Shown here piece by piece: positions 5,574 to 49,840 of a DNA stretch of 64,000 bases (positions are counted from its first letter, which is position 1; each line of letters opens with the position of its first letter). A program made the position numbers and the translations under genes. The notes under the pieces were generated by a model, which made no database searches, was not told the origin of the DNA, and was given only the letters and a program-made list of their open reading frames with translations. Source of the stretch: Candidatus Nomurabacteria bacterium (GTDB lineage: Bacteria; Patescibacteriota; Minisyncoccia; Phycocordibacterales; SBAW01); the NCBI GenBank assembly GCA_943356495.1, contig CALRFF010000002.1, forward strand, positions 165,875 to 229,874, given 5' to 3'.

Positions 5574-7030
<1,457 letters not shown>

Positions 7031-8032: not shown

Positions 8033-8114
8033 GGGCATGTGGCGGAACTGGTATACGCGTACGTCTCAGAAGCGTATCCCGTAAGGGTTGGGAGTTCGAG
8101 TCTCCCCATGCCCA
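8033..8114 (+). tRNA. tRNA-Leu (anticodon CAG), long variable arm
   Basis: Acceptor GGGCATG/CATGCCC, anticodon stem TACGT/GCGTA with loop CTCAGAA, variable stem-loop CCCGTAAGGG, T-arm GGGAGTTCGAGTCTCCC. Confidence 0.75.
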
Positions 8115-13668: not shown

Positions 13669-13920
13669 ATGTCTAAAGAGATGACCATTATTGTCCTCGG
13701 TCTCTTTGTGGTCGTGGTGCCGTACCTCGGCATCCCCGGTGAGTGGCGCGTTATCTTACTGGTACTTTCCGGTCTTGGGCTCGCGGTCACCGGATTTCTC
13801 CTGCGCGGCGAGGCGCTTGCTCGCGGCGGACGCGCACATGCGCACAACTCTTTTGTCGAAAGCGAGCACACTCACTCTACACATGAGCATACCCACGAGG
13901 GCATCACGTCACTCAACTAA
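13669..13920 (+). CDS. Hypothetical small membrane protein (2 TM, His-rich C-terminus)
   Basis: Two hydrophobic helices then HAHNSFVESEHTHSTHEHTHEG. Overlaps the start of the next ORF in another frame, so only one of the two N-terminal models may be right. Confidence 0.3.
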   Translation: MSKEMTIIVLGLFVVVVPYLGIPGEWRVILLVLSGLGLAVTGFLLRGEALARGGRAHAHNSFVESEHTHSTHEHTHEGITSLN

Positions 13921-17895: not shown

Positions 17896-17899
17896 CCAT

Positions 17900-28354: not shown

Positions 28355-29723
28355 TATTTCTCTTACAAAAAAATTTCTGACGGGAGAGTCGTACTACCGG
28401 TTTTCTTCCATTGCCACAAAAGGGCTCGGCTTTATGACGACCTTGTTCGTCTTGCACTCGCTGACGCTGTACCAGTACGGCGTCTTTCAACTGTTGTTGT
28501 CTATCTTTGGAGCGGGTATGGTGGTTTTTTATTTGGCGGGCAATGTCGTGGGCAACGACATACAGCGTTTTATAGCGGCAGGGCAGGAGGGGCGGGCAAA
28601 AAAACTTTTTACCGAGTACAATATCATACGCTTAAGCCTTGGCGTGCTGCTGACGCTCGGCATGGTGCTCGGCGCACCGCTGTTGTCGCGCTGGTACCAG
28701 CCGGACTTTATCCAGATGCTCCAGATAGTAGGGTTGTACTTTTTTGTCGAAGCGCTTTCAGGCTCGCTGTTGTCGTTGGTCAAGGTACGCCTTAACTTCA
28801 GGGCGGCGGCCATGGAGCCCGCCTACGGCAAAGTGGGCCAACTCGCTTTGCTTATAGTATTTTCGCTCACCATAGGCATCTCGACGCGCGAGGCGCTTAT
28901 TGCGGGGCTTATCGGCAACATAGTCGCGGCGCTTACCATGCTCCCCGGCGCCCGCGCCTCGTGGCGGCAATGGCGCGGTGTGCCGCTCCATCATGTGTCG
29001 GTGCTGTGGGGAGTATTGCGCGGCTACGGCAAGTGGGATACTGCGCGGCAAGTCGTGTCTAATTTGGTTTCCAACATACAGCCGTGGCTTATCAAAGTAT
29101 TTATCTCTACCGAAGCGGTGGCTATTTATAGCGTTGCGCTTACCATGGTTGATCTTAGTAAAACCTTTTTGTCTTTTAATACGCTCAGTTCTATCGTGCC
29201 GCGCCAGCTTGCCGACGCGGCGGCTTCGCGCAGGACCTTTGTGCTTAGCATTAAATACCTGTTGTGGATGGCGGTAGTCTGTACCGCCGTAGCGCTTGTC
29301 GCGGGCCCGCTTGGTATAGCGACATTCTTCCCTAAATACCTGGCGGCACTCCCGTATTTTGCCGCGCTGGTGTGGACCGTGCCGTTGGTGGTGTTTACCA
29401 TGCAGGCGGAAACGTTTTTGGTGGCGCTGCGCGAACAGCGGTTTCTCTTTTTGGCGTCGCTGTCGCGCAATGCCGTAACGCCGTTGCTTTTGGTCGCGAC
29501 GCTGCCGGTGCTTGGTTTGTGGGGGGTGGTGGCGACCAAACTGCTGGTAACCGCAAGTTTAATTGTGGCGGAGTTGCGATACCTGTTTCGCAAGCACGCG
29601 CATCTACGGTTTGTGCCCCGCGAACTCCTTACGTTTACCGCCGCCGATACGGTGTTTTTGACCGGTCTTTGGCGCCACAGCCGCGAGCTCCTATCGGTCA
29701 AAGTACGCTCTGTGTTAGGATAA
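28344..29723 (+). CDS. Oligosaccharide/polysaccharide flippase (Wzx-like, MOP superfamily)
   Basis: About 12 predicted hydrophobic helices. Start at MDTNIS. Confidence 0.6.
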   Translation: MDTNISLTKKFLTGESYYRFSSIATKGLGFMTTLFVLHSLTLYQYGVFQLLLSIFGAGMVVFYLAGNVVGNDIQRFIAAGQEGRAKKLFTEYNIIRLSLGVLLTLGMVLGAPLLSRWYQPDFIQMLQIVGLYFFVEALSGSLLSLVKVRLNFRAAAMEPAYGKVGQLALLIVFSLTIGISTREALIAGLIGNIVAALTMLPGARASWRQWRGVPLHHVSVLWGVLRGYGKWDTARQVVSNLVSNIQPWLIKVFISTEAVAIYSVALTMVDLSKTFLSFNTLSSIVPRQLADAAASRRTFVLSIKYLLWMAVVCTAVALVAGPLGIATFFPKYLAALPYFAALVWTVPLVVFTMQAETFLVALREQRFLFLASLSRNAVTPLLLVATLPVLGLWGVVATKLLVTASLIVAELRYLFRKHAHLRFVPRELLTFTAADTVFLTGLWRHSRELLSVKVRSVLG

Positions 29724-29727
29724 TTTT

Positions 29728-30432
29728 ATGAGCGGCAAGGAGCCTTTTATGACCGTGGCCGAGATGCGCGCCAACCCCGAGCGGGTGCGGGCGCTTGATG
29801 TCAGCCCCAAAGACGGCAAGGCAAAAAGCCGCCGTTTTGACGGTTCAACCCGCCCGTCGCTTGTGTATGAGTTTGTAGACAAAGACGCCAAGTTGCTCGA
29901 GCTGGGGCCCTTCGGCGGCCCGCTCACCAAAGAGCTGCAGGAGCAGGGCTACAACCGCATCTCGACGCTCGATTTTATAGACTTGCTCGAGCTGCCTGAC
30001 CGCTCGAAGCTCGAAGCTATAGGCGTCGTCGATTTTAATCGCGACACCTTCCCGCACCCGGACAACACGTTTGACGCGGTAGTGTCCTTCGGTATGTTTG
30101 AGCATTTGGAAAATCCGTTCCATGCGGCGCGCGAGGCGGCGCGCGTGCTTAAGCCCGGAGGTGTGTTTGTTATGGCGATACCGAACGTATTCCATATCGT
30201 CAGCAAGTTAGTCTTTTTGCGTCGGGGGATGTTCCCGCGCTGGAGTTACGGCAATAACCATATTTCCATACTGCCGCACGGCGTGTTTGAAAAGACGATC
30301 CTGCGCGATTTTAAGCTTAAAAAGACCCTGTACTACAAACCTTTCTTGCATTGGTTAGGAGCAAACGCAAAATATCTGCCCGCCAACGAGTGGTTTAGCG
30401 ACTACGTCGCGTACGTGCTGGTAAAAAAATGA
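29728..30432 (+). CDS. Class I SAM-dependent methyltransferase (paralog A)
   Basis: FDAVVSFGMFEHLENP, LKPGGVFVMAIPN. C-terminal 110 aa almost identical to 31368-32078. Confidence 0.65.
   Translation: MSGKEPFMTVAEMRANPERVRALDVSPKDGKAKSRRFDGSTRPSLVYEFVDKDAKLLELGPFGGPLTKELQEQGYNRISTLDFIDLLELPDRSKLEAIGVVDFNRDTFPHPDNTFDAVVSFGMFEHLENPFHAAREAARVLKPGGVFVMAIPNVFHIVSKLVFLRRGMFPRWSYGNNHISILPHGVFEKTILRDFKLKKTLYYKPFLHWLGANAKYLPANEWFSDYVAYVLVKK
30100..30313 (+). repeat. Near-identical 214-bp direct repeat copy A (inside methyltransferase paralog A)
   Basis: Aligned by eye to 31746-31959 with only about 6 mismatches, while flanking gene sequence is much more diverged. Confidence 0.8.
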
Positions 30433-31361
30433 TAACGCGCATAAAAAATGCCTTGGCGCGTCGGTATTGGCGGGTGCGCATGAGCCCCCCGCTGTGGCGT
30501 TTTATCAACCGTGGCCGCAGGCGCACGTGGCAGGCGTTGGCTCTGCGGGAGGCGCCGCACGAGCGGCGCATTGCCGACGCATTACGTGCCGACGGTATCG
30601 CGTTTTCATCGCTCCAAGAGCTGGGGCTCGACCATCTTTGGCCGGCCATGCAGGAAAACGCGCGTGCGCTCAAACAACGCTGGGTCAGTGACGCGTCGTT
30701 TAGAGAACATATTTTAGGCGAACTTGAAAGTAAAGAAATAGCCAAAGGCGCCAAAAAAACATTTTTACTTCCGCTCTACGGCGGCGGCTGGACCACGCCT
30801 ATGCTTGAACCGGAAAATCCGTACATACAGTTTTCTCTTTCCGACACGGTGCTTACTATTGCGGGGATGTACCTCGGTCTTATGCCGAAGTTTGACTCGT
30901 TTAACCTTTCTGAGACGGTGTTGGTCGCGGGGGATGCAAAATTTTCCCAGCGATGGCACCGCGACCCGGAGGACCGCCGGCTGCTCAAAGCTTTTATTTA
31001 TGTCTCCGACGTGCTCGACGACGGTGTGGGGCCGTTTACGTATGTGCGGGGAAGTCAGGAGGGCGGCAGGTACCACCACCTTTTTCCGCAGCAATTTCCG
31101 CAGGGGAGTTATCCGGCGCCCGAGGCACTTGAGCGCACGGTGCATCCCAAGGATATCCAAAAAGCTTTCGGAAAAGCGGGCACGGTGGTGTTTGCCGACA
31201 CCGCGGGTCTGCATCGCGGCGGCTTTAGCACCACGCGGGAGCGTATGATGTACACCGCCGGATACGTCGCTGCAACCTCGACCCAGCCGCGCAAGTTTAC
31301 TATAGGGGAGGCCCCCGCCCATCTATCGGTATTGGCGGACGCGTCGCTCAGAGTATACTAA
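30429..31361 (+). CDS. Phytanoyl-CoA dioxygenase (PhyH)-like Fe(II)/2OG oxygenase family protein
   Basis: WHRDPED (HxD) and a distal HRGG histidine. Size and spacing fit PhyH. Confidence 0.45.
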   Translation: MITRIKNALARRYWRVRMSPPLWRFINRGRRRTWQALALREAPHERRIADALRADGIAFSSLQELGLDHLWPAMQENARALKQRWVSDASFREHILGELESKEIAKGAKKTFLLPLYGGGWTTPMLEPENPYIQFSLSDTVLTIAGMYLGLMPKFDSFNLSETVLVAGDAKFSQRWHRDPEDRRLLKAFIYVSDVLDDGVGPFTYVRGSQEGGRYHHLFPQQFPQGSYPAPEALERTVHPKDIQKAFGKAGTVVFADTAGLHRGGFSTTRERMMYTAGYVAATSTQPRKFTIGEAPAHLSVLADASLRVY

Positions 31362-31367
31362 ACCCTT

Positions 31368-32078
31368 ATGCGCATCGAACCTTTTACACTTATCCGCGGT
31401 CGCCACCCCTTTGTAACGGTCGAAGAGCTCCGTCGCGATTCCACGCTCCTTTTAGAGCCCAAGGGCGATTGGACGGGGCCGCGGTTTGAGGGTTCTACAA
31501 CCACCTCACTGGTCGAAAAGTACTGCCCTAAAGAAAGGCCAATACTTGAATGCGGCCCTATTTGGGGAAAGTTTACAGAATGGCTGCAGAATTACGGCTA
31601 CCGCGATGTACGCGTACTCGATTTTGCAGATATGCTCCGGTGGGGCGACCGCGCCAAGATGCAGTTTGCGGTAACCGATTTTAACAAGGACCGCATGCCG
31701 TATGCGGACAATACCATCGGGAGTGCGGTCGCGTGGGGGATATGCGAGCATTTGGAAAATCCGTTCCATGCGGCCCGCGAGGTAGCACGCGTGCTTAAGC
31801 CCGGAGGTGTGTTTGTTATGGCGATACCGAACGTATTCCATATCGTCAGCAAGTTGGTCTTTTTGCGTCGGGGGATGTTTCCGCGCTGGAGTTACGGCAA
31901 CAACCATATTTCCATACTGCCGCACGGCGTGTTTGAAAAGACAATTCTGCGCGATTTTACGCTTGTCGAAACACGCTACTACAAGCCGTTCTTGCATTGG
32001 CTGGGTGCAAAGGCAAAGTACCTGCCGGCAAACGAGTGGTTTAGCGATTATGTCGCCTATGTGCTGGTAAAAAAATAA
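31368..32078 (+). CDS. Class I SAM-dependent methyltransferase (paralog B)
   Basis: N-terminal half about 35% identical to paralog A, C-terminal half about 95% identical. Confidence 0.65.
   Translation: MRIEPFTLIRGRHPFVTVEELRRDSTLLLEPKGDWTGPRFEGSTTTSLVEKYCPKERPILECGPIWGKFTEWLQNYGYRDVRVLDFADMLRWGDRAKMQFAVTDFNKDRMPYADNTIGSAVAWGICEHLENPFHAAREVARVLKPGGVFVMAIPNVFHIVSKLVFLRRGMFPRWSYGNNHISILPHGVFEKTILRDFTLVETRYYKPFLHWLGAKAKYLPANEWFSDYVAYVLVKK
31746..31959 (+). repeat. Near-identical 214-bp direct repeat copy B (inside methyltransferase paralog B)
   Basis: See copy A. Copies are 1.65 kb apart in the same orientation. Confidence 0.8.
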
Positions 32079-32091: not shown

Positions 32092-33441
32092 ATGAAGACC
32101 CTGCTTATTACCAGCTTTCATCCGGTTGTGTTGCGCAACCTGCTGATGACCGAGGCCCTGAGTCTGCTTATGGCGCGCACCGACGTGCGGGTGGTGGTGC
32201 TTGTGCCGGGATATAAAAAAGAGTATTTTGCCGCGCAACTTCAGTACCCGAACCTTATAGTCGAGGGCATTACGCTCGGTTCGCCTTCAAAACAGTTTGT
32301 TACGCTTATTATAAAACGGCTCGCAAAACTTTCTATCGATACTGCATCGGCCAAAATTCAGCGCCGTATGAAGTGGGAGCGCGAGGGCAAGTGGTGGTAC
32401 TATGCGGCCGCTGCCGTACCGGCATGGTTGTCACGTCACGGGTGGTACCGCGCCGCGTTGCGCTATGCCGACCGCGTACTTACCGCTACAAATCGCTACG
32501 AGGAACTCTTTAACACCTACGCTCCCGACTTGGTATTGGTAACCGACGTGCAGAACGAGCGCGATGTCGAGGTGTCGCAATACGCCAAGCGCCGCGGTAT
32601 CCGCACCTACGCGCTGGTGCGCAACTGGGACAACCTTACAAGTCACGGGCTTATCCGTAGCGTGCCGGATGTGCTGCTGGTGGGGAGCGGCGAGTTGCGT
32701 CGGCAGGCAATACATTTAAACGGCCTGCGGCAGGAGCGGGTGCGGTTGGTGGGCAACCCGCACCATGACCGTTGGGTTAAAGGATCACCCCAAAGTCGCG
32801 AGGCTTTTTTTGCCGAGCACGGTTTTGACCAAAAAAAGCCGCTTATTCTCCTCGCTCTTATCGGCGATTGGTATATCCCCGACAACGATACCGACGCCTA
32901 CTTGCTTGAGCTTGCTGCAACGTGGGACGCAAATGTGATGGTGCGTTTTCATCCGACGGTAGAAGTGGCGGCGTTGCGGGACGCCAAACCAGCCCCTAAT
33001 ATGGCGTTTGACCGGCCGGGACAGGCGTTTAGTAGCGAGTATGCCGACCGTGTACTCGACACCAAAGACGACGAGCGGCTTATGTGCGAGCTTTCTTACA
33101 GTGACATGGTGGTGTGCGGGCCGACTACGTTGGGCATGGAGGCGATGTTGTTCGGCAAGCCGGTTGCGCTTATTAACTTTCACCGCCGCAGCCGTTCGCT
33201 CAAAGAGGGTATTGTACTGTACGAGTATGACCACCTGCGTTTTGTGCGGCAGTATCGCGCCGCGTGGTTGACCGAAAGCGCCGAAGAGCTCGGCCGCGCG
33301 ATAACAACCTATCTCAAAAATCCTGAGTTACATGCAGAGGGACGCGCGGTTGTGGCAAATGCCTACGGCGGCCCGCAGGACGGCCGCTCGGGCAAGCGTC
33401 TTGCGCAGGAGCTGCTCGACGGCCTCGGGCTCTTGACGTAA
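32092..33441 (+). CDS. CDP-alditol:polymer alditol-phosphotransferase-like protein (TagB/TagF 'Glyphos_transf' family), paralog 1
   Basis: KPLILLALIGDWY, VMVRFHPT, SYSDMVVCGPTTLGMEAMLFGKPVALINFH resemble the TagF K-x-vLYAPTwR / HP / ADvLITDYSSvfFDf motifs. Confidence 0.4.
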   Translation: MKTLLITSFHPVVLRNLLMTEALSLLMARTDVRVVVLVPGYKKEYFAAQLQYPNLIVEGITLGSPSKQFVTLIIKRLAKLSIDTASAKIQRRMKWEREGKWWYYAAAAVPAWLSRHGWYRAALRYADRVLTATNRYEELFNTYAPDLVLVTDVQNERDVEVSQYAKRRGIRTYALVRNWDNLTSHGLIRSVPDVLLVGSGELRRQAIHLNGLRQERVRLVGNPHHDRWVKGSPQSREAFFAEHGFDQKKPLILLALIGDWYIPDNDTDAYLLELAATWDANVMVRFHPTVEVAALRDAKPAPNMAFDRPGQAFSSEYADRVLDTKDDERLMCELSYSDMVVCGPTTLGMEAMLFGKPVALINFHRRSRSLKEGIVLYEYDHLRFVRQYRAAWLTESAEELGRAITTYLKNPELHAEGRAVVANAYGGPQDGRSGKRLAQELLDGLGLLT

Positions 33442-33467
33442 ACGCCCGCCAGCGACACCATCACCCT

Positions 33468-35168
33468 ATGAACGTACTCGGACTCAAAATAGCTAACCAC
33501 GACACGGGCGCCGCGCTTATTGCGCACGGGCGCGTCGTCGCCGTCTCCGAAGAGCGGCTTAACCGGGTTAAGCACTCGTTTAATATGTTCCCCACGCTCG
33601 CGATAGACTACTGCCTTGCGGAGTTGGGGCTTACACCGGCAGAGCTGGACCTTATTGTTATCGATCAAACCGGCGTGCGCGAAGAGGCACCGATGAAAGA
33701 AATTTTTGCGCGCGAGACAGGTGCCCGCTTTGCGGGCGTGCGGGTGGAGGTTATCAACCACCACGACGCGCACGCGGCATCGGCTTTTTTTGCATCACCG
33801 TTTAGCGAGTCGGCGGTGCTGGTGTACGACGGCTCGGGCGAGCGCTTTTTGACGCAAGAAGGCGTAGTGGTAGAAACAGAGACGCTCTACCAAGGCCGCG
33901 ACAACACGCTTACCGAACTGCAGAAAGTGCGCCACTTGCGCGACGGACGCCGCGCGACCATCGGCATCGGCAAAGTGTACAGTCTGCTTTCAAGCTCGTA
34001 CCTCGGCTTCGGCAACTACAACGAAGGCAAAATGATGGGGTTAGCGCCGTTTGGGGACCTGTCGTTGCTACAAAAAATCCCCGAACACCGCTGGTGGAAA
34101 GAGGTAGACGGCGAAATTGTCTGCAACGCGCAGATATTCCCCGCATGGCGTATTCCGCTTATCGGCGGCGCATTGGCGGCGCTGTGGCACCGCGCACGTT
34201 TGGGCAGCAGTGTCTTTGCCCCTATTATCCTGCCGCGCCCGGCGCGCAATGGGGAGCAGCTACCCGACACGTACTATGCAAGCGTGGCGCGCACCGCCCA
34301 GCATGTGCTCGAGGCCGTTGCGGTCGCGCTCGGTTTAAAACTTAAAGCGCTGACCGGCTCGGATAATTTGGCGATAGCCGGCGGCATCGGCCTTAACATC
34401 GACGCCAATAAAAACTTTTTAGACAAAGCGGGTTTTAAGCGCTTGTTCGTACAGCCCGGCAGCTCCGACAGCGGAGTACCGCTTGGGTGCGCGCTGTGGG
34501 GCTACCATGTACTCCTTAAACAGCCGCGCTTTTGGGAGATGAAGCATGCCTATCTCGGACGCGCCTACTCTACCCTAGAGGTTGAAGCGGCCCTAGACGC
34601 TTTTAAAGATAAGGTGCGCTGGAGACGCTCCGCCACGATAGCCAAAGACGCGGCCGCGCTGTTGGCCGACGGCAAAGTGGGGGCGTGGTTTCAGGGCGGG
34701 AGCGAGTATGGGCCGCGCGCGCTCGGGCACCGCTCGATTATTGCCGATGCCCGCCGCCCCGACATGGCCGACACGCTTAACTATCGCGTCAAGCACCGCG
34801 AGGCGTGGCGGCCGTTTGCCACCTCGATGCTTAAAGACAAGTTGAGCGAGTGGTTTGACCTTGCGCACGAAAGTCCGTACATGCTGCTTGCGGCGCAGGC
34901 GCTCCCCGGCGTAGCCGCGCAGGTGCCGTCGGTCATACACGTCGACAACACCTCGCGCATACAAACCGTGACCAAAGAAGACAATGGGCGGTACTTCGAG
35001 CTGATAGACGAGTTTTACAAACTGACCGGTGTGCCTATTATCCTCAACACCTCCTTTAACCTCGGCGGCGAGCCTATTGTCGAAAGCCCGCAAGACGCCC
35101 TGCGCACCTTTACCTCGACCGACATGGATTACTTGGTGCTCGAGGAGTATGTGGTAGAGAAGCTCTAA
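33468..35168 (+). CDS. Carbamoyltransferase (NodU/CmcH/TobZ family)
   Basis: N-terminal LGLKIANHDTGAALI (ASKHA-like) and C-terminal EYGPRALGHRSIIADARRP ... NTSFN..GEPIV, characteristic of O-carbamoyltransferases. Confidence 0.85.
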   Translation: MNVLGLKIANHDTGAALIAHGRVVAVSEERLNRVKHSFNMFPTLAIDYCLAELGLTPAELDLIVIDQTGVREEAPMKEIFARETGARFAGVRVEVINHHDAHAASAFFASPFSESAVLVYDGSGERFLTQEGVVVETETLYQGRDNTLTELQKVRHLRDGRRATIGIGKVYSLLSSSYLGFGNYNEGKMMGLAPFGDLSLLQKIPEHRWWKEVDGEIVCNAQIFPAWRIPLIGGALAALWHRARLGSSVFAPIILPRPARNGEQLPDTYYASVARTAQHVLEAVAVALGLKLKALTGSDNLAIAGGIGLNIDANKNFLDKAGFKRLFVQPGSSDSGVPLGCALWGYHVLLKQPRFWEMKHAYLGRAYSTLEVEAALDAFKDKVRWRRSATIAKDAAALLADGKVGAWFQGGSEYGPRALGHRSIIADARRPDMADTLNYRVKHREAWRPFATSMLKDKLSEWFDLAHESPYMLLAAQALPGVAAQVPSVIHVDNTSRIQTVTKEDNGRYFELIDEFYKLTGVPIILNTSFNLGGEPIVESPQDALRTFTSTDMDYLVLEEYVVEKL

Positions 35169-35169
35169 G

Positions 35170-36543
35170 ATGAAAACTGTTTTTATTACGAGCTTTCATG
35201 CGCTTATATCGCGCAATATCCTAATGGCCGGCGTACCCGCGCTGTTGGCTAATACACACCGCGTGGTGCTGTTGGTCCCGCAGGAAAAAGTATCCTACTT
35301 TGCCGACGAGTTCGGCCTGCCTGCCGGCAAGGCAGGCGGTGGCGAAATTATAGTTGAAGGCGTGGATACGACGCTTACCCGCCGCGACCGCCTGCTGCGG
35401 TATGCAGTGCTGGCAATTACCCGTACCAAAGGCCTTGCGATAAAAAGACGCGCTAAATATGCCGCCGGCGGGAACTTACTTTCCTATATCGGCTCGGCAC
35501 TGCCCTCGGCGCTGCTGCGCGGCGCGCGGCCGGTTGTTGCCGCTTTACGTTTTTTTGACCCATTGGTGCTGCGCTCGCGCCGTTTTGCACCGTTGTTTGC
35601 AAAGTATCAGCCGGCGCTCGTGTTTGCTACCGACCTGCAAAACGAAATGGATGTGCGCCTGCTCGAAGAGGCAAAGGCCCGCGGTGTTGCCACTGCGGGC
35701 ATGATCCGCTCGTGGGACAACGTGTCATCAAAGGGTTTGTTGCGCGCGGTGCCCGCGCTGGTGGTGGTACACAACGAGTCTTTGAAGCGCCAAATGATTG
35801 AAAAAAATTTCATACCAGCAGACACTATTGCGGTGGTAGGTATCCCGCATTACGACCGGTATGCGGAGCCCGCCGTTACCGTGCGGGAAGATTTTTTTGC
35901 CCCGCTCGGGCTCGATAAAAACCGGAAACTTGTTTTGTTCGCGCCGATAGGCGACCGCTATATCCGCGACAACAAGCTCGATGCGCTTATACTCGAGACA
36001 CTTTCCCACCTCGATGTAAACGTTCTGGTGCGTTTGCCGCCGACCGACACTATCGCGTACCTGCCGGTGCCGAATAATCGCGCGCATATAGTAGTGCAAA
36101 AAACCGGCGACCGTCCGTGGAAGAATGCTCATGGAGGGGGAGCTTCTAAACTCAATGAGATAACGCGCCAAGACGAACAGACGCTTATAGACTCGCTCTA
36201 CTACGCCGACGTATTAGTGACAGGGCAGTCGACCATGGTTATCGATGCGGCGGCCTTTGATACCCCGAGCATTATTATCGACTTTGACACCGAGCCGCGC
36301 GAGTACTACGACAGCATGCATCGCTACTACGACTACGAGTACTATCCGCCGGTTATACAAAGCGGCGGGGTGTTTGTGGCGCGCTCACCCGAGGAGTTGC
36401 GTATACTGGTCGAGTCTTCGCTTACGGACCGCGCACTCGGCCACGATGGCCGTATGCGGCTGTTTGCTGAGCAAGCGGGGGAGTTAGGGGGCGGTTCGGC
36501 GGAACGACTTGTGGAGGCGTTGCGGTCGGCGATATACTCCTAA
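35170..36543 (+). CDS. TagB/TagF-family alditol-phosphotransferase-like protein, paralog 2
   Basis: RKLVLFAPIGDRY, VLVRLPPTD, YYADVLVTGQSTMVIDAAAFDTPSIIIDFDTEPREYY. Confidence 0.45.
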   Translation: MKTVFITSFHALISRNILMAGVPALLANTHRVVLLVPQEKVSYFADEFGLPAGKAGGGEIIVEGVDTTLTRRDRLLRYAVLAITRTKGLAIKRRAKYAAGGNLLSYIGSALPSALLRGARPVVAALRFFDPLVLRSRRFAPLFAKYQPALVFATDLQNEMDVRLLEEAKARGVATAGMIRSWDNVSSKGLLRAVPALVVVHNESLKRQMIEKNFIPADTIAVVGIPHYDRYAEPAVTVREDFFAPLGLDKNRKLVLFAPIGDRYIRDNKLDALILETLSHLDVNVLVRLPPTDTIAYLPVPNNRAHIVVQKTGDRPWKNAHGGGASKLNEITRQDEQTLIDSLYYADVLVTGQSTMVIDAAAFDTPSIIIDFDTEPREYYDSMHRYYDYEYYPPVIQSGGVFVARSPEELRILVESSLTDRALGHDGRMRLFAEQAGELGGGSAERLVEALRSAIYS

Positions 36544-36547
36544 TATC

Positions 36548-37807
36548 ATGGAAGGGCCTCTTATAAGCGTATATATACCCACCAACGGGCGTCCGGAGCT
36601 GGAGTATGCGATTGATTCGATACTCAATCAGGATATACCGGGAGTCGAGATAGTGGTGAGTAGTTGCGCCAAACAAGAGGAGGTTGCTCGGCTCATCAGG
36701 AGATATAATAACCCTTTAATTAAAAACGCTCCCTTGCCGGAGGGGATGCCGACTAACGGTACTTTTGATTATGCGGCGCGACACACGACCGGGCGGTATA
36801 TTTTTTTCCTGAGCGACGACGACTGTTTTTTGCCGGGGGCGCTTGCTTTGATGGTCGCCGTGGCGCGCTCTACCGGCGCCGACCTAGTGGCGGGCAACCA
36901 CCTGTACTTTTACGACAACAGGCATGCGCGCCGCTATTTGTGGCATGCGATGGGCGTCGTTCCGTACACCGGCACTACACGCACTTTTAATCCGTTTCAG
37001 GCTATCCGGGCGTTTTTTGCCTTCGATCGCATAGGTCCCAAGCATCAAATTCCGCGTCTCCATCCGTCTACGATTATGGTCGAGCGGGGCGTGATGGAGC
37101 GGGCGTGGAAACAGATAGGGACGATTATGTTCGACGATTTGCCGAACGGGCTTTCGCATCAGCCGATTCTTCTCGCGCATGCGCAGCGCTGCGTGTCGGT
37201 TGATTACCCCGTGGTCATCGTCGGACGCCTCGGCGTCTCTATGAGTCAGGTGTGGTCGACGGCTGCCCGCAACCGCTTTCGCAAAACACCGTTTCCTTTG
37301 GAATATTCGCCGGTCATCGGCTACACGCGCATTAACGGCTCGATAGAAAATTATCTCCGCCTGCAAAAACGGTATCCGGAGGTGTTCGGTGATATTCCCA
37401 TCAATTACAATGTATTTGCCCGTATTTATGTGCAGGAGTTGCGGTACTTGGACATGGAGTGGAACATGATGGTGCCGGTATGGCGCGACGCCTTTGCGTT
37501 TTTGCGCACCTTGCCGGAGCCGGTACGCACCGAACTGCTCGCCAAAGCGCGGCGTTTTGCGCTTCTGTATCCTGTCGTATTCGTTGCGCGGCGCACGGGG
37601 CTGCATCACCTGTGGCGGGTACTGCTCGGACGGCGGATCGCCGCTCGCGCTCCGTCTCCTGCGGTGGAGTTTGCACACAAGCGGGAATTTTATATACCGC
37701 TTGCAAAGTATCCAACGGTTCGCACCATCAGCGATGTGGCGGCCAACGCCTTTTCTATTTTGCGCCATGAGATAGGCCAAGGCCTTCCTTCGGCACCAAG
37801 TATATGA
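36548..37807 (+). CDS. Glycosyltransferase family 2 with extended C-terminal domain
   Basis: ISVYIPTNGRPELEYAIDSILNQ, and FLSDDD (DxD). Confidence 0.7.
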   Translation: MEGPLISVYIPTNGRPELEYAIDSILNQDIPGVEIVVSSCAKQEEVARLIRRYNNPLIKNAPLPEGMPTNGTFDYAARHTTGRYIFFLSDDDCFLPGALALMVAVARSTGADLVAGNHLYFYDNRHARRYLWHAMGVVPYTGTTRTFNPFQAIRAFFAFDRIGPKHQIPRLHPSTIMVERGVMERAWKQIGTIMFDDLPNGLSHQPILLAHAQRCVSVDYPVVIVGRLGVSMSQVWSTAARNRFRKTPFPLEYSPVIGYTRINGSIENYLRLQKRYPEVFGDIPINYNVFARIYVQELRYLDMEWNMMVPVWRDAFAFLRTLPEPVRTELLAKARRFALLYPVVFVARRTGLHHLWRVLLGRRIAARAPSPAVEFAHKREFYIPLAKYPTVRTISDVAANAFSILRHEIGQGLPSAPSI

Positions 37808-39006
37808 AGATACAACACTGCAGACTCTGTAAGGGGACTTTGAGCGAACCCAAACTCAAATTTCCACCCACTCCTCTGGCGAACGAGTATTTAAAAGACC
37901 CTACTCCGCAGGAACTTTTTCCGCTCGAGGTGTGCGTATGTACGGTGTGCGGGCATTATCAGCTGAACGAAAGCGTCGACCCTGCGCGGCTGTTTCGCTA
38001 TTATCAATATGTAGCGGGGCATTCGGCGGTTAACAAAGAGCATTTTGTACGCTACGCCGGGCATGTGGTAGAGCGTTTTGCGTTGCCGGAGGGCAGCGCG
38101 GTGCTCGATATCGCCAGCAACGACGGCATATTGCTGCAGGCGTTTAAAGAGCGGGGTATGCGGGTACTCGGCATTGATCCGGCGGAGAACTTGGCCGCGC
38201 TGGCGAATGCAAACGGCATCGAAACCATCCCCGACTTTTTTACCGAGGCGAAAGCGTTAGAAATGCGCGCACACTACGGCACATTCGACCTTGTCACGGC
38301 AAACAATGTCTTTGCGCATGTGCCCGATTTGGAGGACTTTGCAAAAGGGGTACAGGTCATGCTCGCGCCCCGCGGCGTATTTTCTTTCGAGGTGTCTTAT
38401 TTTCTCGATGTGTGTGACAAGACGCTGTTTGACACTATTTATCACGAACACTCCTCGTACCACACTCTTACGCCGCTCGTTCCGTTTTTTAAACGGCTCG
38501 GTATGGAACTCTTTGACGTAGAGCATATCGAAAATCACGGGGGCTCTGTCCGGGTGTTTGTTACGCGCGCGGGCGCGCGGCCCGTTGAGTTGCAGGTTGC
38601 TGAGCTTTTGGCAAAAGAGCAGGATATGGAAGGCAAGGTTGCACGGCTGGGGGTAAAAGTGGAGGAGTTGGGGCAGGCTTTGCGCGCCAAACTCAATGAG
38701 CTCAAGAGTGCGGGCAAGCGGATAGCAATTTTCGGCGTGCCGGCAAAGGCCACGACGTTGATATACGCGCTCGGCATCGACGAAAGAACAATAGAGTTTG
38801 CGGTAGATGATACAACGCTTAAACAAGGCACCTATACGCCGGGCAAACATATCCCGATACTGCCCTCGAACGCCATCTATGAGCGCAAGCCCGATGTCCT
38901 GCTGGTGCTGGCGTGGAATTTTGCCGATAGTATCATGCAGAAGCATGCGGCATTTACGGGTACATGGATCGTCCCTATCCCCGAATTGAAAGAATACGGT
39001 ATATGA
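37804..39006 (+). CDS. SAM-dependent sugar C-methyltransferase (TylCIII/NDP-hexose 3-C-methyltransferase-like: Zn-ribbon + MT + C-terminal domain)
   Basis: N-terminal CRLC...CTVCGH zinc ribbon, VLDIASNDG motif I, and a C-terminal domain typical of Methyltransf_13/14 C-methyltransferases. Confidence 0.65.
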   Translation: MKIQHCRLCKGTLSEPKLKFPPTPLANEYLKDPTPQELFPLEVCVCTVCGHYQLNESVDPARLFRYYQYVAGHSAVNKEHFVRYAGHVVERFALPEGSAVLDIASNDGILLQAFKERGMRVLGIDPAENLAALANANGIETIPDFFTEAKALEMRAHYGTFDLVTANNVFAHVPDLEDFAKGVQVMLAPRGVFSFEVSYFLDVCDKTLFDTIYHEHSSYHTLTPLVPFFKRLGMELFDVEHIENHGGSVRVFVTRAGARPVELQVAELLAKEQDMEGKVARLGVKVEELGQALRAKLNELKSAGKRIAIFGVPAKATTLIYALGIDERTIEFAVDDTTLKQGTYTPGKHIPILPSNAIYERKPDVLLVLAWNFADSIMQKHAAFTGTWIVPIPELKEYGI

Positions 39007-39962
39007 AAAAAATATTAGTGACCGGAAGCTGCGGGTTTATCTTTAGTAATTTTATGCGCAAAGTGATGCGCGAGAAGACGCCGTACACATTCGTGAGCGT
39101 CGACAAAGTTATTGCTCCGTATAATTTATATAACGTCGGGCTTAATAGGGACCACGCGTTTTACATGGGGGATATCGCCGATGAGGCGTTTATTAATAAC
39201 GTATTTTTGCTTGAAAAGCCGGACATCGTCATCCACGGCGCCGCCGAGAGCTTTGTCGACGCCTCGATACAAAGCGCCGGACCGTTTATCCACTCAAACG
39301 TGGTTGGCACGCAGGTGATGGTCGATATGGCGCTGAGGCACGGCGTCGAGCGTTTTGTCTATGTAAGCACCGACGAGGTCTACGGACAGCTGGGGAAGGA
39401 CGAACCGTCCTGGACCGAGGAGACTCCCATCAACCCGCGCAATCCGTACTCCGCCTCTAAAGCGGCAGGGGAGCTTATCGTGCGCGCCGCCGGCGAAACG
39501 CACGGTCTGCAATACACTATTACCCGCTGTTGCAATAATTACGGGCCGGGTCAGCCGCCCCGCAACTTGGTACCGAGGGCAATCAAATCTATTCTGGCGG
39601 ATGAACCGGTACCTATTCACGGGAGCGGCAAGTATATCCGCGAGTGGCTGTATGTTGATGACCATTGCACGGCGATACTTGCGATTCTGGAGAAATCTCC
39701 CTACAACGAAATCTACAACATCGGTTCCGGCATATCCTGTTCTAATTTGGACATGGTGCAAAAAATCGGAACGTGTCTTAACAAGACTCCGAAAATCGAA
39801 TTTATGAAAGATAGGCTCGGTCAGGACTTCAGATACTCGGTAGAGTTCTCAAAAACTCAGAAACTCGGATGGAAAATCGCGCACACGTTTGATGCGGGTA
39901 TTGAAAAGTGCGTCAAGTGGTATGTCGACAACGGATGGTTTTTACAGAGCACCGGTATGTAA
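39003..39962 (+). CDS. dTDP-glucose 4,6-dehydratase-like NDP-sugar dehydratase (extended SDR)
   Basis: ILVTGSCGFIFSNF, YVSTDEVYG, YSASKAAGE. ATGA overlap with the upstream stop. Confidence 0.7.
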   Translation: MKKILVTGSCGFIFSNFMRKVMREKTPYTFVSVDKVIAPYNLYNVGLNRDHAFYMGDIADEAFINNVFLLEKPDIVIHGAAESFVDASIQSAGPFIHSNVVGTQVMVDMALRHGVERFVYVSTDEVYGQLGKDEPSWTEETPINPRNPYSASKAAGELIVRAAGETHGLQYTITRCCNNYGPGQPPRNLVPRAIKSILADEPVPIHGSGKYIREWLYVDDHCTAILAILEKSPYNEIYNIGSGISCSNLDMVQKIGTCLNKTPKIEFMKDRLGQDFRYSVEFSKTQKLGWKIAHTFDAGIEKCVKWYVDNGWFLQSTGM

Positions 39963-41327
39963 CACATCAGGGAGAGCCTGAAGTATCGCTTGTGCGATGC
40001 GTTCCCCCGCTTTGCCGTCTTGCAATGGCCCGTACTGCTCTCGCGAGAGCAACTCGCGCCGTTCGCGGTCGAGCTCGGGATGTGCGAGATACTTCAGCAG
40101 CCACTCCAAAAGCTCCACTTTGCTTTTGACGATACGAAAGCCGCCGGTAGCGACCGCGTTACTATGGTGCTCGGTGCCGTAATAAAAGGTAGGGGTCTTG
40201 AGCCACTCTTTTACGGGCTTTAATAAAAAATCGATATTTATGACCGGCGTACCGACCACGGCGGCGTCGACGCTGATTGACGAGGTGTAGGTAACCAACA
40301 CGGCGGCATGCTTGAGCGATGAGTTGAGGTCGCGCAGGTCGGCGTCTGTCATGTCCCAGTCGCCGCCGCGCTCGGGCCCTAGCCGTATGCCCGGCAAGTC
40401 GTAGATAAGCCACGGGCGTTTAGCAATTTCCTCTTTATCTAAAAAGTCGTTGGGCTGAAAGCGCACCAACATCTGCGCATCGGGGACCTCCTTTGTTTCG
40501 TCGATCATCCGGTGCAAGAGGTCGATGAGCTCCCAGTCACTGTCGCTAAAGGTGGCACCCATGGGGGCGACCAGTACCAGTTTTTTGGCGGGATCGAGGC
40601 CCTTTTTTGCAAAAAATGTCTCCCGCGGCTCGGGCTCTTCGGTGATGTAGCGGTCGTACTGCGGTATACCAGTGAGCACGATACGCTCGGCCGGCATGTC
40701 CGCATGCCGCACAGCGTCCCTTTTAACGGCCTCGTTGTACACAATCATCACGTCGGGCAGTAGCCGCACAGTCCAACGGGCCGTCAGGCGGTCCCATGAG
40801 TTGATAAACCCAACGGTCTTGATACCGAGCCGCTTGGCCTCGCGCAGGAGCGATATCTCCACATCGTCGAAAAGGTTGGTGCACACCAACAAATCCGGCG
40901 CCTCGGCGCGCAAAAGTTCTGATACCCGCGGATCGCGGATAAGATGACGGTCGAGCGTGCGGATCACTCGGCGCACTGGCCCCATCGAGCAGATGCGATT
41001 GAGCAGAACGCCGCCGATAAAGTTGGCGTACCGCCCAGTGTCGTGAGCCAGCATGCGGCGGCGCAAGTCGGTGGTCTTGGTACGTATCGTGTATTTTTTT
41101 AGAAAGCCGAACAGCTTCTCGAACATGCCTGGCGGCGCCTCATAAAACGCGATATACGAGGTGCGCGGCAGGGTAAACTCTTGCGCATAATGAAAGGCAC
41201 GTTCCTCGCTTTGCACGAGCATCTGTAGCTCGACCTGTGGGTCGGCAAGAAGGGTCTTTACAATATCGGTCCGCAGGACATTTTTGACCGTAACGGCCTG
41301 CGTAATGGTTACAAGGACTTTTTGCAT
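39942..41327 (-). CDS. TagB/TagF-family alditol-phosphotransferase-like protein, paralog 3 (minus strand)
   Basis: KKLVLVAPMGATF, MLVRFQPNDF, LKHAAVLVTYTSSISVDAAVVGTPVINIDF. Confidence 0.45.
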   Translation of the reverse strand: MQKVLVTITQAVTVKNVLRTDIVKTLLADPQVELQMLVQSEERAFHYAQEFTLPRTSYIAFYEAPPGMFEKLFGFLKKYTIRTKTTDLRRRMLAHDTGRYANFIGGVLLNRICSMGPVRRVIRTLDRHLIRDPRVSELLRAEAPDLLVCTNLFDDVEISLLREAKRLGIKTVGFINSWDRLTARWTVRLLPDVMIVYNEAVKRDAVRHADMPAERIVLTGIPQYDRYITEEPEPRETFFAKKGLDPAKKLVLVAPMGATFSDSDWELIDLLHRMIDETKEVPDAQMLVRFQPNDFLDKEEIAKRPWLIYDLPGIRLGPERGGDWDMTDADLRDLNSSLKHAAVLVTYTSSISVDAAVVGTPVINIDFLLKPVKEWLKTPTFYYGTEHHSNAVATGGFRIVKSKVELLEWLLKYLAHPELDRERRELLSREQYGPLQDGKAGERIAQAILQALPDVLHTGAL

Positions 41328-41359: not shown

Positions 41360-42538
41360 ATGAAGGTAACCTCGGTAGACATGCTGCACGCCGACGCGGG
41401 TTGGCGCCCGTGGTCGTTCGTTAAAATCGTGACCGACACGGGGCTTGTGGGCTGGAGCGAGTGCACCGACTCGCACGGTTCGCCGCGGGGCATGGAGGGG
41501 GTGGTGCGCGACTTGGCGCCGCTTATTGTGGGAGAGGACCCGCGCCGCATCGAATTGTTGCTTGCCCGCATGCACGCGCGCACGCGCCAAAGCCCCGGTA
41601 GTGTAGTCCAAAAAGCAATCGGCGGGATAGAAAACGCATTGTGGGATATTACCGGCAAGGCGCTCGGCGTGCCGGTGCACGCCCTTTTTGGCGGCGCGGT
41701 GCGTGACCAGATACCGCTGTATTGGTCGCACTGCGGCACGTCGCGCGTGCGCGCGTGGCAGACCGTAGGGAAGCCCCAGATTAAAACGCAGGCGGACCTC
41801 GACTTGTTTGGCGCAGAAGTGAAAGCCTCGGGATTTACCGCGCTCAAGACGAATATCGGCATACTCTCCGGCGAGCCGCGGGTGTATATGCCGGGATTTT
41901 ATAAAAGCGAAGGCGGCCCCGAACGTAACGCCGACACAGCGCTGCTAAAAGAAATAGACGCCTGGGTCGGCGGCATGCGCCGCGCGGTGGGGGACGATAT
42001 CGGCATTGCGCTCGACCTTAACTTTAACTTTAAGACCGAAGGGTACATTAAGGTCGGCCGCATGTTAGAGAAATATAATTTATTGTGGCTCGAGATAGAC
42101 ACCTACGACCCCGATGCCCTGCGGCAGATAAAAGACGCAGTACGCACGCCGGTTACTTCGTGCGAAAACCTGTACGGTTTGCGCCAATATCGCCCCTATT
42201 TTGAAAAGCATGCCATGGACGTCGCTTCGGTAGATGTTATTTGGAACGGATTTTCCGAATCAAAAAAAATAGCCGACATGGCCAACTTGTATGAAATGAA
42301 CGTCACCCCGCACAACTACAACGGGCATCTTTCGACCGCGATAAGCGCTCATTTTTGCGCGCTGGTACCGAACCTGCGCATGATGGAAGTCGACGTGGAC
42401 GACGTGCCGTGGCGCGACGAGTTGTTTACCGCGGTGCCTAAGGTGGTAAACGGCATGCTCGGCGTACCGCAAAGTCCCGGTTGGGGAGTCGATGTCAATG
42501 AAGAGGTACTTAAAGCGCATCCGTGGCCAAAACCATAA
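41360..42538 (+). CDS. Enolase-superfamily enzyme (mandelate racemase/muconate lactonizing enzyme family; acid-sugar dehydratase-like)
   Basis: SFVKIVTDTGLVGWSEC, ALDLNFNF, metal-ligand spacing typical of the galactonate/rhamnonate dehydratase subgroup. Confidence 0.75.
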   Translation: MKVTSVDMLHADAGWRPWSFVKIVTDTGLVGWSECTDSHGSPRGMEGVVRDLAPLIVGEDPRRIELLLARMHARTRQSPGSVVQKAIGGIENALWDITGKALGVPVHALFGGAVRDQIPLYWSHCGTSRVRAWQTVGKPQIKTQADLDLFGAEVKASGFTALKTNIGILSGEPRVYMPGFYKSEGGPERNADTALLKEIDAWVGGMRRAVGDDIGIALDLNFNFKTEGYIKVGRMLEKYNLLWLEIDTYDPDALRQIKDAVRTPVTSCENLYGLRQYRPYFEKHAMDVASVDVIWNGFSESKKIADMANLYEMNVTPHNYNGHLSTAISAHFCALVPNLRMMEVDVDDVPWRDELFTAVPKVVNGMLGVPQSPGWGVDVNEEVLKAHPWPKP

Positions 42539-43365
42539 TCCCTAAGACTATAGGCATACTCGGCCCCGGCGCCATCGGGGGTCTTTTGGCGCAGCGCTTG
42601 GCCGCCTGCGGGCATCGCATGGTGCTACTTGGCCGCGGCGAACGGCTTACCGAGCCGGTCGACCTGCTTTTTATAACCGTTAAGTCGCCGCATCTTGTCG
42701 AGGCGCTTGCCCAAGTGCCGCGCGAGCATGTGGTGGGCGCGGTAACCGTGCCGCTCTTAAACGGCGCGGGTCATGCGGCAGCCGTCCGCGCCGCGCTCGG
42801 CACGCCGGTTGCTGCAGGCACTATCGGTTCGGTCGAGGCAGTAGTTGAAGACGGTGTGGCAAAACAGTTGTCGGTTAATCCGCCGCATATAGACCTTGCC
42901 TCGCGCGAAGTGTCGCGCGAAATGCTCAATACTATAGCCGAGATACTGCGCGACGCGGGGCTGAGCGTCTCGGTCTTAGATAGCGAAGAAGAAGTGGTAT
43001 GGAAAAAGTTGGTGCGGCTTAACGCGATAGCCACCGCCACCGCCGCGGCAGGCCAGCCACTGGGTATGGTGCGCACCGACCCTGTGTGGCGCCCCGTGCT
43101 TGAAGCGTTAGTGCAAGAAAGTTCTGCGGTTGCCGCCGCCGAAGGGGTTGCGGTACCGCCCGCACAAGTACTTGCCGACATCGACAAGTTGCCGGCATCG
43201 CTTATGACGTCGCTCCAACGCGATATCGCGGCGGGGAAACCATCGGAACTCGATGCCATACCGGGCGGGGTGCTTGCGCTTGCGGCGCGCTACGGCGTGG
43301 CGTGCCCCGTGCTTGCGGCGCAGTATGCCGCCTTGATAAAACACACAAAGTCGCCAATAGTATAA
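42523..43365 (+). CDS. 2-dehydropantoate 2-reductase (ketopantoate reductase, ApbA/PanE) family oxidoreductase
   Basis: IGILGPGAIGGLLAQRLAACGH Rossmann N-terminus, ApbA_C-like VWKKLVRLNAIATATAAAG. Confidence 0.65.
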   Translation: MAKTIIPKTIGILGPGAIGGLLAQRLAACGHRMVLLGRGERLTEPVDLLFITVKSPHLVEALAQVPREHVVGAVTVPLLNGAGHAAAVRAALGTPVAAGTIGSVEAVVEDGVAKQLSVNPPHIDLASREVSREMLNTIAEILRDAGLSVSVLDSEEEVVWKKLVRLNAIATATAAAGQPLGMVRTDPVWRPVLEALVQESSAVAAAEGVAVPPAQVLADIDKLPASLMTSLQRDIAAGKPSELDAIPGGVLALAARYGVACPVLAAQYAALIKHTKSPIV

Positions 43366-43369
43366 CGGT

Positions 43370-44104
43370 ATGGATAGCGCGCCGAAGATTATGGTGCTTG
43401 TGGGCATACGCTCGGGCTCTAAGGGCGTGCCTAATAAAAATATACGGCCCTTGGCGGGCAAGCCCTTGGTCGGCTGGATACTTGAGGCCGCCGCGCGCTC
43501 AAAGCACGTCAATCGGATTGTCGTGTCGACCGACAGCGAAGAGTATGCCGCAGTAGCGCGTAGCTTTGGCGCCGAGGTGCCGGTGCTGCGCCCTGTCGAG
43601 CTTGCGGCAGACCGCTCTCCGGAGTTTGAGTATGTCAAACACATGCTGGCGTGGTTGCGCGAACACGAAGGCTACGAGCCCGACCTTGTGGTGCGTGCGA
43701 TGGCGACGGTGCCGCTACAATCAACCGAGGACATCGACGGCGTGGTGGAGCTGTTGCTCGGCGACTCCGCGGCGGACTCGGCGGTAGTCGTTGCCGAGGC
43801 GCATCAGCATCCGCACAAAGCGTTAAAAATAGTAGAGGAGGGAGGGCATAAAAAAGTACTCACCTATTTTACCGACAGCGGCCGCGAGGTAACGCCGCTT
43901 GCGCGCCAAGGGTACGAAAAAGCCTACTTCCGCGCCAACATTATCGCGTTCCGTCCGCGGGTTATTAAAGACACCGACTCGCTTACCGGCGACACCGTGC
44001 GGCCGTACGTCATACCGCAGGACCGTGCGGTCGATATAGACAGTGAAGCGGATTTTTTTATCATCGAACAGCTTATCAATAGCCGCCGCGGGGAAAACCG
44101 ATAA
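43370..44104 (+). CDS. Acylneuraminate cytidylyltransferase-like (CMP-ulosonic acid synthetase family, CTP_transf_3), copy 1
   Basis: VGIRSGSKGVPNKNIRPLAGKPLVGW (NeuA/KdsB-type motif). Confidence 0.75.
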   Translation: MDSAPKIMVLVGIRSGSKGVPNKNIRPLAGKPLVGWILEAAARSKHVNRIVVSTDSEEYAAVARSFGAEVPVLRPVELAADRSPEFEYVKHMLAWLREHEGYEPDLVVRAMATVPLQSTEDIDGVVELLLGDSAADSAVVVAEAHQHPHKALKIVEEGGHKKVLTYFTDSGREVTPLARQGYEKAYFRANIIAFRPRVIKDTDSLTGDTVRPYVIPQDRAVDIDSEADFFIIEQLINSRRGENR

Positions 44105-45018: not shown

Positions 45019-45107
45019 ATATGCAACCTTTTCCCCCGTGTGCCGTTATAAATGGCACCCGGGGTATTTTCTTGATAGAAACAAAACCTTGTGGTACAGT
45101 GCGACCC

Positions 45108-49813: not shown

Positions 49814-49840
49814 GCGGTTTTTATGTACAGTGTTTCGGCT

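Follow-up and report, generated by a model that had tools for sequence, protein, structure and literature searches.

The 64-kb stretch of DNA analyzed here ("the window") comes from a member of the Patescibacteria, or candidate phyla radiation (CPR), and contains a glycan locus, from ~17.8 to 55.2 kb of the window, in which three paralogous genes for predicted transferases, here named P1, P2, and P3, were found. The GatB protein encoded at the end of the window shares ~70% identity with homologues from "Candidatus Adlerbacteria," Parcubacteria, and Paceibacterota. P1 (449 amino acids; positions 32092 to 33441, + strand) and P2 (457 amino acids; 35170 to 36543, + strand) have a carbamoyltransferase gene between them, and P3 (461 amino acids; 39942 to 41327, - strand) is inverted relative to both. 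All three are called as genes in public assemblies. P1 has 36% amino acid identity to P2 and 27% to P3, and the pairwise phmmer E values among the three proteins (1e-48 to 1e-68) are far past chance. Alignment and phmmer confirmed the three paralogous open reading frames (ORFs) of ~450 amino acids that a first-pass annotation of the sequence had reported, and all of the conserved blocks quoted there were seen in the alignment: ITSFH..RN, R(N/S)WDN, KLVL.AP.G, VRF(H/P/Q)P, and a C-terminal V(V/L)V.G.ST...A...P..I.F. Each protein retains a tryptophan-aspartate (W-D) dyad, which in P1 is W179-D180 of an S/N-W-D motif. They differ at the position that corresponds to H584 of TagF and to the histidine of an HP motif: P1 ("H-type") retains the HP motif in R285-F-H287-P288, while P2 ("P-type") has proline and P3 ("Q-type") has glutamine.

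The first-pass annotation had read these proteins as TagB/TagF-type alditol-phosphate transferases, and a search with the profile PF04464 (Glyphos_transf; gathering score, 22.1 bits) gave a mixed result: P2 (bit score, 26.4) and P3 (bit score, 30.6) pass the gathering score, but P1 gave no match at an E value of ≤0.1. The matches cover profile positions ~135 to 366 only and never reach the N-terminal domain, where the W-H dyad of TagF sits. For each protein the score against the NCBIfam model NF046086 (BFO_1060) is higher than that against PF04464, at 49.0 bits for P1, 30.7 for P2, and 43.4 for P3, both matches being weak, and the P1 match spans nearly the whole model. Among 25 members of the family, BFO_1060 matches 24 (best E value, 4e-18) and PF04464 matches 20. 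BFO_1060 is the Tannerella forsythia FDC 92A2 homologue of Tanf_01245 and TFUB4_00887, the deletion of which leaves the Tannerella O-glycan without its terminal pseudaminic or legionaminic acid derivative; the authors of that study described a TagB-superfamily domain together with the motifs D/E-D/E-G and HP, typical of bacterial sialyltransferases (PMC5420450). An exhaustive profile search, counted in clusters of 50% identity, recovered 1,955 family clusters at an E value of ≤1e-30 and 5,392 at ≤1e-10. P1 to P3 appear to belong to a large, uncharacterized family that is sister to both the TagF-like phosphotransferases and the Tannerella BFO_1060 transferases.

Other routes to an assignment gave little. 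Single-sequence phmmer searches of P1 and P3 against Protein Data Bank (PDB) sequences returned nothing meaningful, and the family profile found a weak match to Cps3D (E value, 0.018). There was no Pfam match to the GT38, GT52, or GT80 sialyltransferases, and the hhalign comparison with Escherichia coli NeuS was insignificant. SCO4879, from the teichulosonic acid cluster of Streptomyces, has been described as NeuE-like (PMC3479208); a link of the P1-to-P3 family to E. coli NeuE was considered and rejected, as NeuE and NeuS of strain UTI89 have no hhalign relation to it (probability, <1%). Among the relatives, ~900-amino-acid tandem self-fusions of two family domains were found (P0033, P0034, P0058, P0059, and P0085), as were fusions to an S-adenosylmethionine (SAM) methyltransferase or a polysaccharide deacetylase domain (P0049 and P0128), and these fusions give no clue to the donor.

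TagB, TagF, and TarL depend critically on two invariant histidines, and in TarL W299 stacks on H300 (PMC10901376). The first corresponds to H444 of TagF and H300 of TarL, and the second, which contacts the α-phosphate, to H584 of TagF and H433 of TarL. The TagF sequence was taken from the PDB, where mutant entries locate H444 in QTWHGTPLK (3L7J) and H584 in LLRMHYL (3L7M); the TagF, TagD, and IspD baits, which were used solely as a means of finding real sequences, were confirmed by PDB match and Pfam. In an hhalign comparison, the family profile aligned to 13 full-length TagF/TarF sequences with 96.4% probability over 246 columns, which correspond to the C-terminal domain of TagF. In this alignment R-M-H584-Y of TagF pairs with R285-F-H287-P288 of P1, and the residue equivalent to H584 is proline in P2, glutamine in P3, and, across 130 representatives of the family, Pro in 83, His in 33, and Gln in 8. 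For the first histidine, the order of secondary structure elements (β4, β5, then W-x, α5, β6) equates W138-H139 of TagF (P0181 numbering) with W179-D180 of P1. No feature of the family is more conserved than the S-W-D motif, in which Asp is found in all 130 representatives and Trp in 128. Conservation of the catalytic histidine pair had been the first-pass annotation's own criterion; an invariant W-D stands in place of W-H, only P1 has His at the H584 position, and because the pair is absent the TagF-type assignment fails. Judged by the alignments, S-W-D in place of the W-H of TagF is probably a clear catalytic signature of the family, and P1 would keep the ancestral HP, with P2 and P3 derived.

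The other motifs of TagF are changed as well. APTWRD becomes AP(I/M)G(D/A) (ALIGD in P1), TDYSS becomes (T/C)G(P/Q)(S/T)T in P1 and P2 and TYTSS in P3, and RGFY has no conserved counterpart within the aligned block. The elements that are kept are G221-x-P-(H/Q)-x-D226, A-P-x-G, the invariant Arg285, S345-T346, and Asp/Glu350.

The fold of the proteins is GT-B and is similar to those of TagF and TarL, with MshA, 2-epimerases, and macrolide glycosyltransferases as the top Foldseek matches. Structure comparison gave the highest scores to NeuC and UDP-GlcNAc 2-epimerases (22 to 24), followed by TarL (20.7; 18% identity), TagF (20.1), Bcs3 (17.7), and the polysialyltransferase SiaD (17.2). The fold thus puts the family in the epimerase/TagF branch of GT-B and does not decide its chemistry. 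A four-helix insertion at residues 69 to 130 is amphipathic, basic, and aromatic and may mediate membrane or acceptor binding.

Within 10 kb downstream of the paralogs lie two NeuB-family synthases and two PseF-like CMP-ulosonate synthetases, and this association was followed in related genomes. With a closer subset of the 25-sequence family alignment, 77 related loci were found in species-representative genomes, which are metagenome-assembled genomes of Patescibacteria type (two are labeled Gammaproteobacteria); 37 of the loci have full 10-kb flanks. A NeuB or a CMP-ulosonate synthetase is present in 33 of the 37 full-flank loci (NeuB in 26 and the synthetase in 32), and the synthetase occurs in 45 of all 77. 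Where a NeuB or CMP-synthetase gene is present (49 of 77 loci), the nearest such gene lies a median of 1.1 kb away, and many are immediate neighbors. At least two family paralogs were found in 30 of the 37 full-flank loci, and six loci with precomputed Pfam annotation show the same pattern. No TagD- or IspD-like ORF (PF01467 or PF01128) was detected in the window at an E value of ≤10, and across the 77 related loci a TagD-family gene occurs in 2 and an IspD-family gene in none. The carbamoyltransferase and the C-methyltransferase found between the paralogs are present in only 10 and 12 of the 77 loci, respectively; these two genes, with the dehydratase and the GT2 gene that also lie between the paralogs, are accessory genes specific to this genome.

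The association also holds in the reverse direction. Among 80 metagenome loci chosen only by similarity of their CMP-synthetases, 31 were at least 10 kb long; 13 of these 31 match the family hidden Markov model (HMM), and 9 (~30%) score at least 75 bits, against a chance expectation of ~1e-4 per locus (family members make up ~3e-6 of the proteins in the reference library). The W-D dyad is common to all of the strong matches, most of which also show R-x-H-P at positions 285 to 288. The weak matches, at 25 to 37 bits, are NeuC-like epimerases that lack the family motifs. The broader family combines an acidic base with HP and S-S/T motifs and has a genomic tie to ulosonate synthesis.

Three further observations were made on genes of the related loci. 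The TagD-family gene of L075 (19678 to 20676, - strand) is fused to an HpcH/PK-like barrel of the phosphoenolpyruvate (PEP) mutase type, which suggests phosphonate or other nonglycerol cytidylyl chemistry. In L044 (17045 to 18925) and L085 (15902 to 17782), a NeuB-like and a CMP-synthetase-like sequence lie in one 627-codon frame, as a fusion or as two in-frame genes. L007 has, beside NeuB and together with three family paralogs, a gene for a 422-amino-acid protein (16695 to 17963, - strand) with a weak Pfam match to α-2,8-polysialyltransferase, possibly an additional type of CMP-sugar transferase in the CPR.

The variation at residue 287 is itself ordered. In 171 family ORFs of CPR loci, this residue is Pro in 66, His in 31, Tyr in 23, Arg in 18, and Gln in 16, and the commonest combination in a locus is one H-, one P-, and one Q-type gene. 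A trio of F[H], F[P], and F[Q] proteins was found in 12 loci, in that order in 10 of them, and in most of the 12 it is followed by genes for NeuB, a CMP-synthetase, and a 2-hydroxyacid dehydrogenase. The order in the window is the same (P1, H; P2, P; P3, Q), except that accessory genes are inserted and the Q-type gene is inverted. Because the same trio recurs across loci, mostly in the same order, the "paralog expansion" of the first-pass annotation is better described as an old, conserved triad, which on the sequence evidence probably comprises three orthologous groups and not a recent expansion.

We propose that P1, P2, and P3 are glycosyltransferases that use CMP-activated ulosonic (nonulosonic) acids, to which we assign a probability of roughly 0.58. 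The proposal follows from three points: the studied members of the matched families use cytidine-nucleotide donors, with CMP release shown for TagF-type enzymes; the conserved half of the proteins is the nucleotide-binding domain; and the only cytidine-activated donors encoded in or near the loci are CMP-ulosonates. P1 to P3 would be cytoplasmic GT-B transferases, probably associated peripherally with the membrane, that take a CMP-activated ulosonic acid of the nonulosonic type, made by the downstream NeuB and CMP-synthetase, and transfer the sugar to a lipid-linked surface glycan with release of CMP. Assembly of the acceptor glycan would fall to the seven GT4 enzymes and the GT2 enzyme of the locus, and its export to a Wzx/Wzy-type route. 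In this scheme the C-terminal domain would bind the cytidine nucleotide through residues shared with TagF (Arg285, S-T at 345 and 346, and Asp/Glu350), and the invariant Asp180 of the W-D dyad may act as the general base in place of the TagF histidine. What distinguishes the H-, P-, and Q-types is presumably the acceptor, linkage, or donor for which each is specific.

Several points weigh against this proposal, which draws on sequence, predicted fold, and genome context. Glycan loci cluster many genes, so co-location with NeuB and CMP-synthetase genes does not prove that their product is the donor, and in many loci the paralogs (two to four) outnumber the CMP-sugar pathways (one or two). Two unannotated ORFs of the window, at 48644 to 49813 and 51858 to 52901, could be the real ulosonate transferases. 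The BFO_1060 scores are far under the curated cutoff of 200 bits, so membership in that family is not established, and the HP motif has no histidine in P2, in P3, or in the majority of CPR members (83 Pro versus 33 His in the 130 representatives). The equation of H444 with D180 depends on the order of secondary structure elements in two AlphaFold2 models and not on superposition; hhalign extension in local, global, and low-mact modes places H444 near T151-D152, and the aligned block begins after W-H. Since neither W179-D180 nor T151-D152 contains a histidine, the loss of the first histidine is independent of the mapping chosen.

Alternatively, P1 to P3 could be GT-B transferases for another activated sugar, such as a C-methylated or carbamoylated 6-deoxyhexose or a sugar derived from GDP-mannose, with the CMP-ulosonate link reflecting no more than a shared glycan island. 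The generic GT-B fold, whose top Foldseek matches were listed above, is consistent with such a role, as are the excess of paralogs over CMP-sugar pathways and the interleaving of the paralogs here with the dehydratase, C-methyltransferase, and carbamoyltransferase genes. Those modifying genes are far less regular companions of the family than the CMP-synthetase (12 of 77 loci for the C-methyltransferase and 10 of 77 for the carbamoyltransferase, versus 45 of 77, or 32 of the 37 with full flanks); the search that started from CMP-synthetases recovered the family; and the two matched families, BFO_1060 and Glyphos_transf, have studied members that use cytidine-nucleotide donors. Transfer of a different sugar is a real, if minority, possibility. 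A role upstream of transfer, as NeuC/WecB-like (hydrolyzing) NDP-sugar 2-epimerases that feed NeuB, is very improbable: 3 of the 25 family members weakly match TIGR03568 (NeuC) and the window has no Epimerase_2 gene, but the match to Epimerase_2 (PF02350) is insignificant and was obtained with P3 only (13.5 bits; E value, 0.033), the family HMM scores the true NeuC-like genes of ulosonate loci at no more than 25 to 37 bits and its motifs are missing from them, the C-domain motifs align with TagF and not with epimerases, and two to four divergent copies per locus ill fit an enzyme for a single precursor step.

Genuine TagB/TagF-type phosphotransferases would transfer glycerol-, ribitol-, or sugar-phosphate from a CDP- or UDP-linked donor to make a teichoic-acid-like phosphodiester polymer, a function with which the passing PF04464 scores of P2, P3, and 20 of the 25 family members agree. 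Wall polymers are conceivable in CPR bacteria, which have peptidoglycan genes, and the missing tagD is not decisive, since TagF-like domains also take UDP-hexose donors (PMC5974469). We nevertheless consider this function quite unlikely, given that the invariant histidine pair is not conserved (W-H to W-D, and H584 to Pro in P2 and Gln in P3), that the TWRD, DYSS, and RGFY motifs are altered, that the Pfam matches miss the W-H-bearing N-terminal domain, and that cytidylyltransferases of the TagD and IspD families are absent from the window and nearly so from the related loci (2 of 77 and 0 of 77), with one of the two TagD genes fused to the PEP-mutase-like barrel. The polyol-phosphate (alditol-phosphate) chemistry put forward in the first-pass annotation is unsupported on the same grounds, as the window has no tagD- or tarI-like gene. 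Its added remark that such chemistry is not expected in this host is moot and a weak argument either way: TagF-like polymerases are known outside the Firmicutes and Actinobacteria (PMC5974469), and CPR have peptidoglycan.

Among known systems, P1 to P3 would work most like the TagB-superfamily nonulosonic acid transferases of Tannerella. BFO_1060 (NF046086) is the top curated family for P1 to P3 and for 24 of 25 relatives, it shares with them the GT-B or "TagB-superfamily" domain and the adjoining NeuB-type and CMP-synthetase genes, and its HP motif occurs here in P1 and in the majority of the non-CPR relatives from ulosonate loci. Unlike the Tannerella protein, P1 to P3, at 31 to 49 bits against a cutoff of 200, are not members of the family, most CPR copies lack the histidine of HP, and there are two to four paralogs per locus instead of a single gene; the host is a member of the Patescibacteria and not of the Bacteroidota, and the Tannerella function is known from genetics alone. 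With TagF, TagB, TarF, and TarL (PF04464; 3L7I and 8VA1), the family shares the C-terminal nucleotide-binding half (hhalign, 96%), with G-x-P-x-x-D, A-P, R-x-(H)-x, and S-S/T plus the following Asp, and both would release CMP. In contrast to that group, P1 to P3 lack the conserved histidine pair, have altered TWRD, DYSS, and RGFY motifs, retain in the N-terminal domain an extra α4 (as in 2-epimerases) and the four-helix insertion at residues 69 to 130, and have no CDP-polyol synthesis genes nearby.

The capsule polymerases of Gram-negative bacteria (Cps3D, 8QOY; Bcs3, 8A0C; and CslB) are likewise TagF-type domains outside the Gram-positive bacteria and are encoded in multienzyme glycan loci. 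These polymerases carry the complete set of five TagF motifs with both histidines, and they come joined to GT-A or GT-B domains, whereas P1 to P3 are single-domain proteins without the histidines, with tandem self-fusions among the relatives. The bacterial GT-B sialyltransferases (GT38, GT52, and GT80) use a CMP-sugar donor, as P1 to P3 would, and have an N-domain acidic residue and C-domain H-P and S-S/T motifs that are also present in the broader family; there is no detectable sequence-family match to them, and D/E-D/E-G is not literally present. From the UDP-GlcNAc 2-epimerase/NeuC group (Epimerase_2), the family is set apart by the absence of a significant HMM match, by different conserved motifs, and by its multicopy layout.

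The genes around and between the paralogs are those of a glycan locus, which contains seven GT4 genes, a GDP-mannose 4,6-dehydratase, several SAM methyltransferases, a probable flippase, and a Wzy_C-TPR protein. Pfam and NCBIfam matches showed the immediate neighbors to have been correctly identified in the first-pass annotation. The NodU/CmcH-type O-carbamoyltransferase between P1 and P2 (33468 to 35168, + strand; Carbam_trans_N/C, with Carbam_trans_C at 226 bits) is an accessory glycan-modifying enzyme. P2 is followed on the + strand by a GT2 glycosyltransferase (36509 to 37807; PF00535, 53 bits), an NDP-hexose C-methyltransferase (37804 to 39006; Methyltransf_14, 146 bits, with the Zn-binding Methyltransf_13 and a SAM methyltransferase domain), and an RmlB-like NDP-hexose 4,6-dehydratase (38964 to 39962; TIGR01181, 326 bits, under the 365-bit cutoff). 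Upstream, the probable Wzx-type flippase (28269 to 29723, + strand) has no Pfam match; we infer its function from L005, where a 461-amino-acid gene annotated Polysacc_synt lies two genes upstream of the P1 homologue. The SAM-methyltransferase genes at 29728 to 30432 and 31368 to 32078, just upstream of P1, have 3' ends of 300 nucleotides (30091 to 30390 and 31737 to 32036) that are 89% identical in DNA sequence and flank a 310-amino-acid ORF without a family match (30429 to 31361); the repeat looks like a recent duplication or gene conversion.

Downstream of P3, all on the + strand, lie an enolase-superfamily sugar-acid dehydratase (41360 to 42538), directly followed by an ApbA/PanE-type reductase (42523 to 43365) and the first CMP-ulosonate synthetase (43370 to 44104; CTP_transf_3, with PseF as the top NCBIfam model). 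This trio (41360 to 44104) is also present in the related loci L010, L012, and L081 and may represent a second way, independent of NeuB, to make a CMP-activated 2-keto-3-deoxy acid. The first NeuB-family ulosonate synthase (45021 to 46244; NeuB and SAF domains) is followed by the second CMP-ulosonate synthetase (46202 to 46990; CTP_transf_3, top NCBIfam model PseF), and the second NeuB-family synthase (49823 to 50821), without a SAF domain, is followed by a D-2-hydroxyacid dehydrogenase (50791 to 51765), the conserved final gene of the cassette that runs from F[H]-F[P]-F[Q] to NeuB, CMP-synthetase, and dehydrogenase. The same region holds two cupins and an NDP-sugar dehydrogenase with a CBS domain. 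Between the latter and the second NeuB lies the 389-amino-acid protein at 48644 to 49813, which has no Pfam or NCBIfam match and has homologues at the same place in L009, L031, L032, L037, and L072; this protein may act either as an enzyme of the pathway or as an alternative transferase. No aminotransferase was found in the window. The glycan locus probably ends with the gene for a membrane protein of the Wzy_C type (O-antigen ligase/polymerase-like) with TPR repeats (52968 to 55199, + strand), and two ORFs in or beside the locus, at 51858 to 52901 (347 amino acids) and 13691 to 14995 (434 amino acids), have no family match.

Elsewhere in the window, peptidoglycan synthesis is represented by MurB and a Mur ligase. 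Just upstream of the glycan locus, positions 15027 to 17895 encode a VirD4/TrwB-like coupling ATPase and then a ComEA-like helix-hairpin-helix protein with a PKD domain, and two adjacent fasciclin-domain proteins are encoded at 8205 to 8813 and 9232 to 9870. A complete, solitary bacterial 16S rRNA gene (5567 to 7029, + strand) is followed ~0.9 kb on by two tRNA genes (7925 to 7997 and 8033 to 8114). No 23S rRNA gene was found downstream of it in the window, and this is an unlinked rRNA arrangement.

A literature search found no paper that ties nonulosonic acids to Patescibacteria, and knowledge of the transferases for pseudaminic, legionaminic, and related nonulosonic acids "is scarce" (PMC5420450). 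The family described here is large and unstudied (about 1,950 clusters at 50% identity and an E value of ≤1e-30) and is tied to CMP-ulosonate synthesis in both directions of search. Automatic labels of "CDP-glycerol glycerophosphotransferase" for its members are probably misleading, which affects the teichoic-acid-like polymers predicted for CPR. A speculative and rather doubtful extension would make the triad a dedicated machine for a phosphate-free, ulosonic-acid-rich anionic wall polymer ("teichulosonic-acid-like"), in which the H-type would be a classical CMP-sugar transferase, the P- and Q-types would have another catalytic solution or a priming, polymerizing, or scaffolding role, and the exchange of His for Asp as the catalytic base would have turned a branch of the TagF lineage into a new glycosyltransferase family. 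If P1 to P3 and their relatives are indeed CMP-ulosonic acid transferases, the surface of many Patescibacteria would bear sialic-acid-like sugars, which would be relevant to the attachment of these episymbionts to their hosts.

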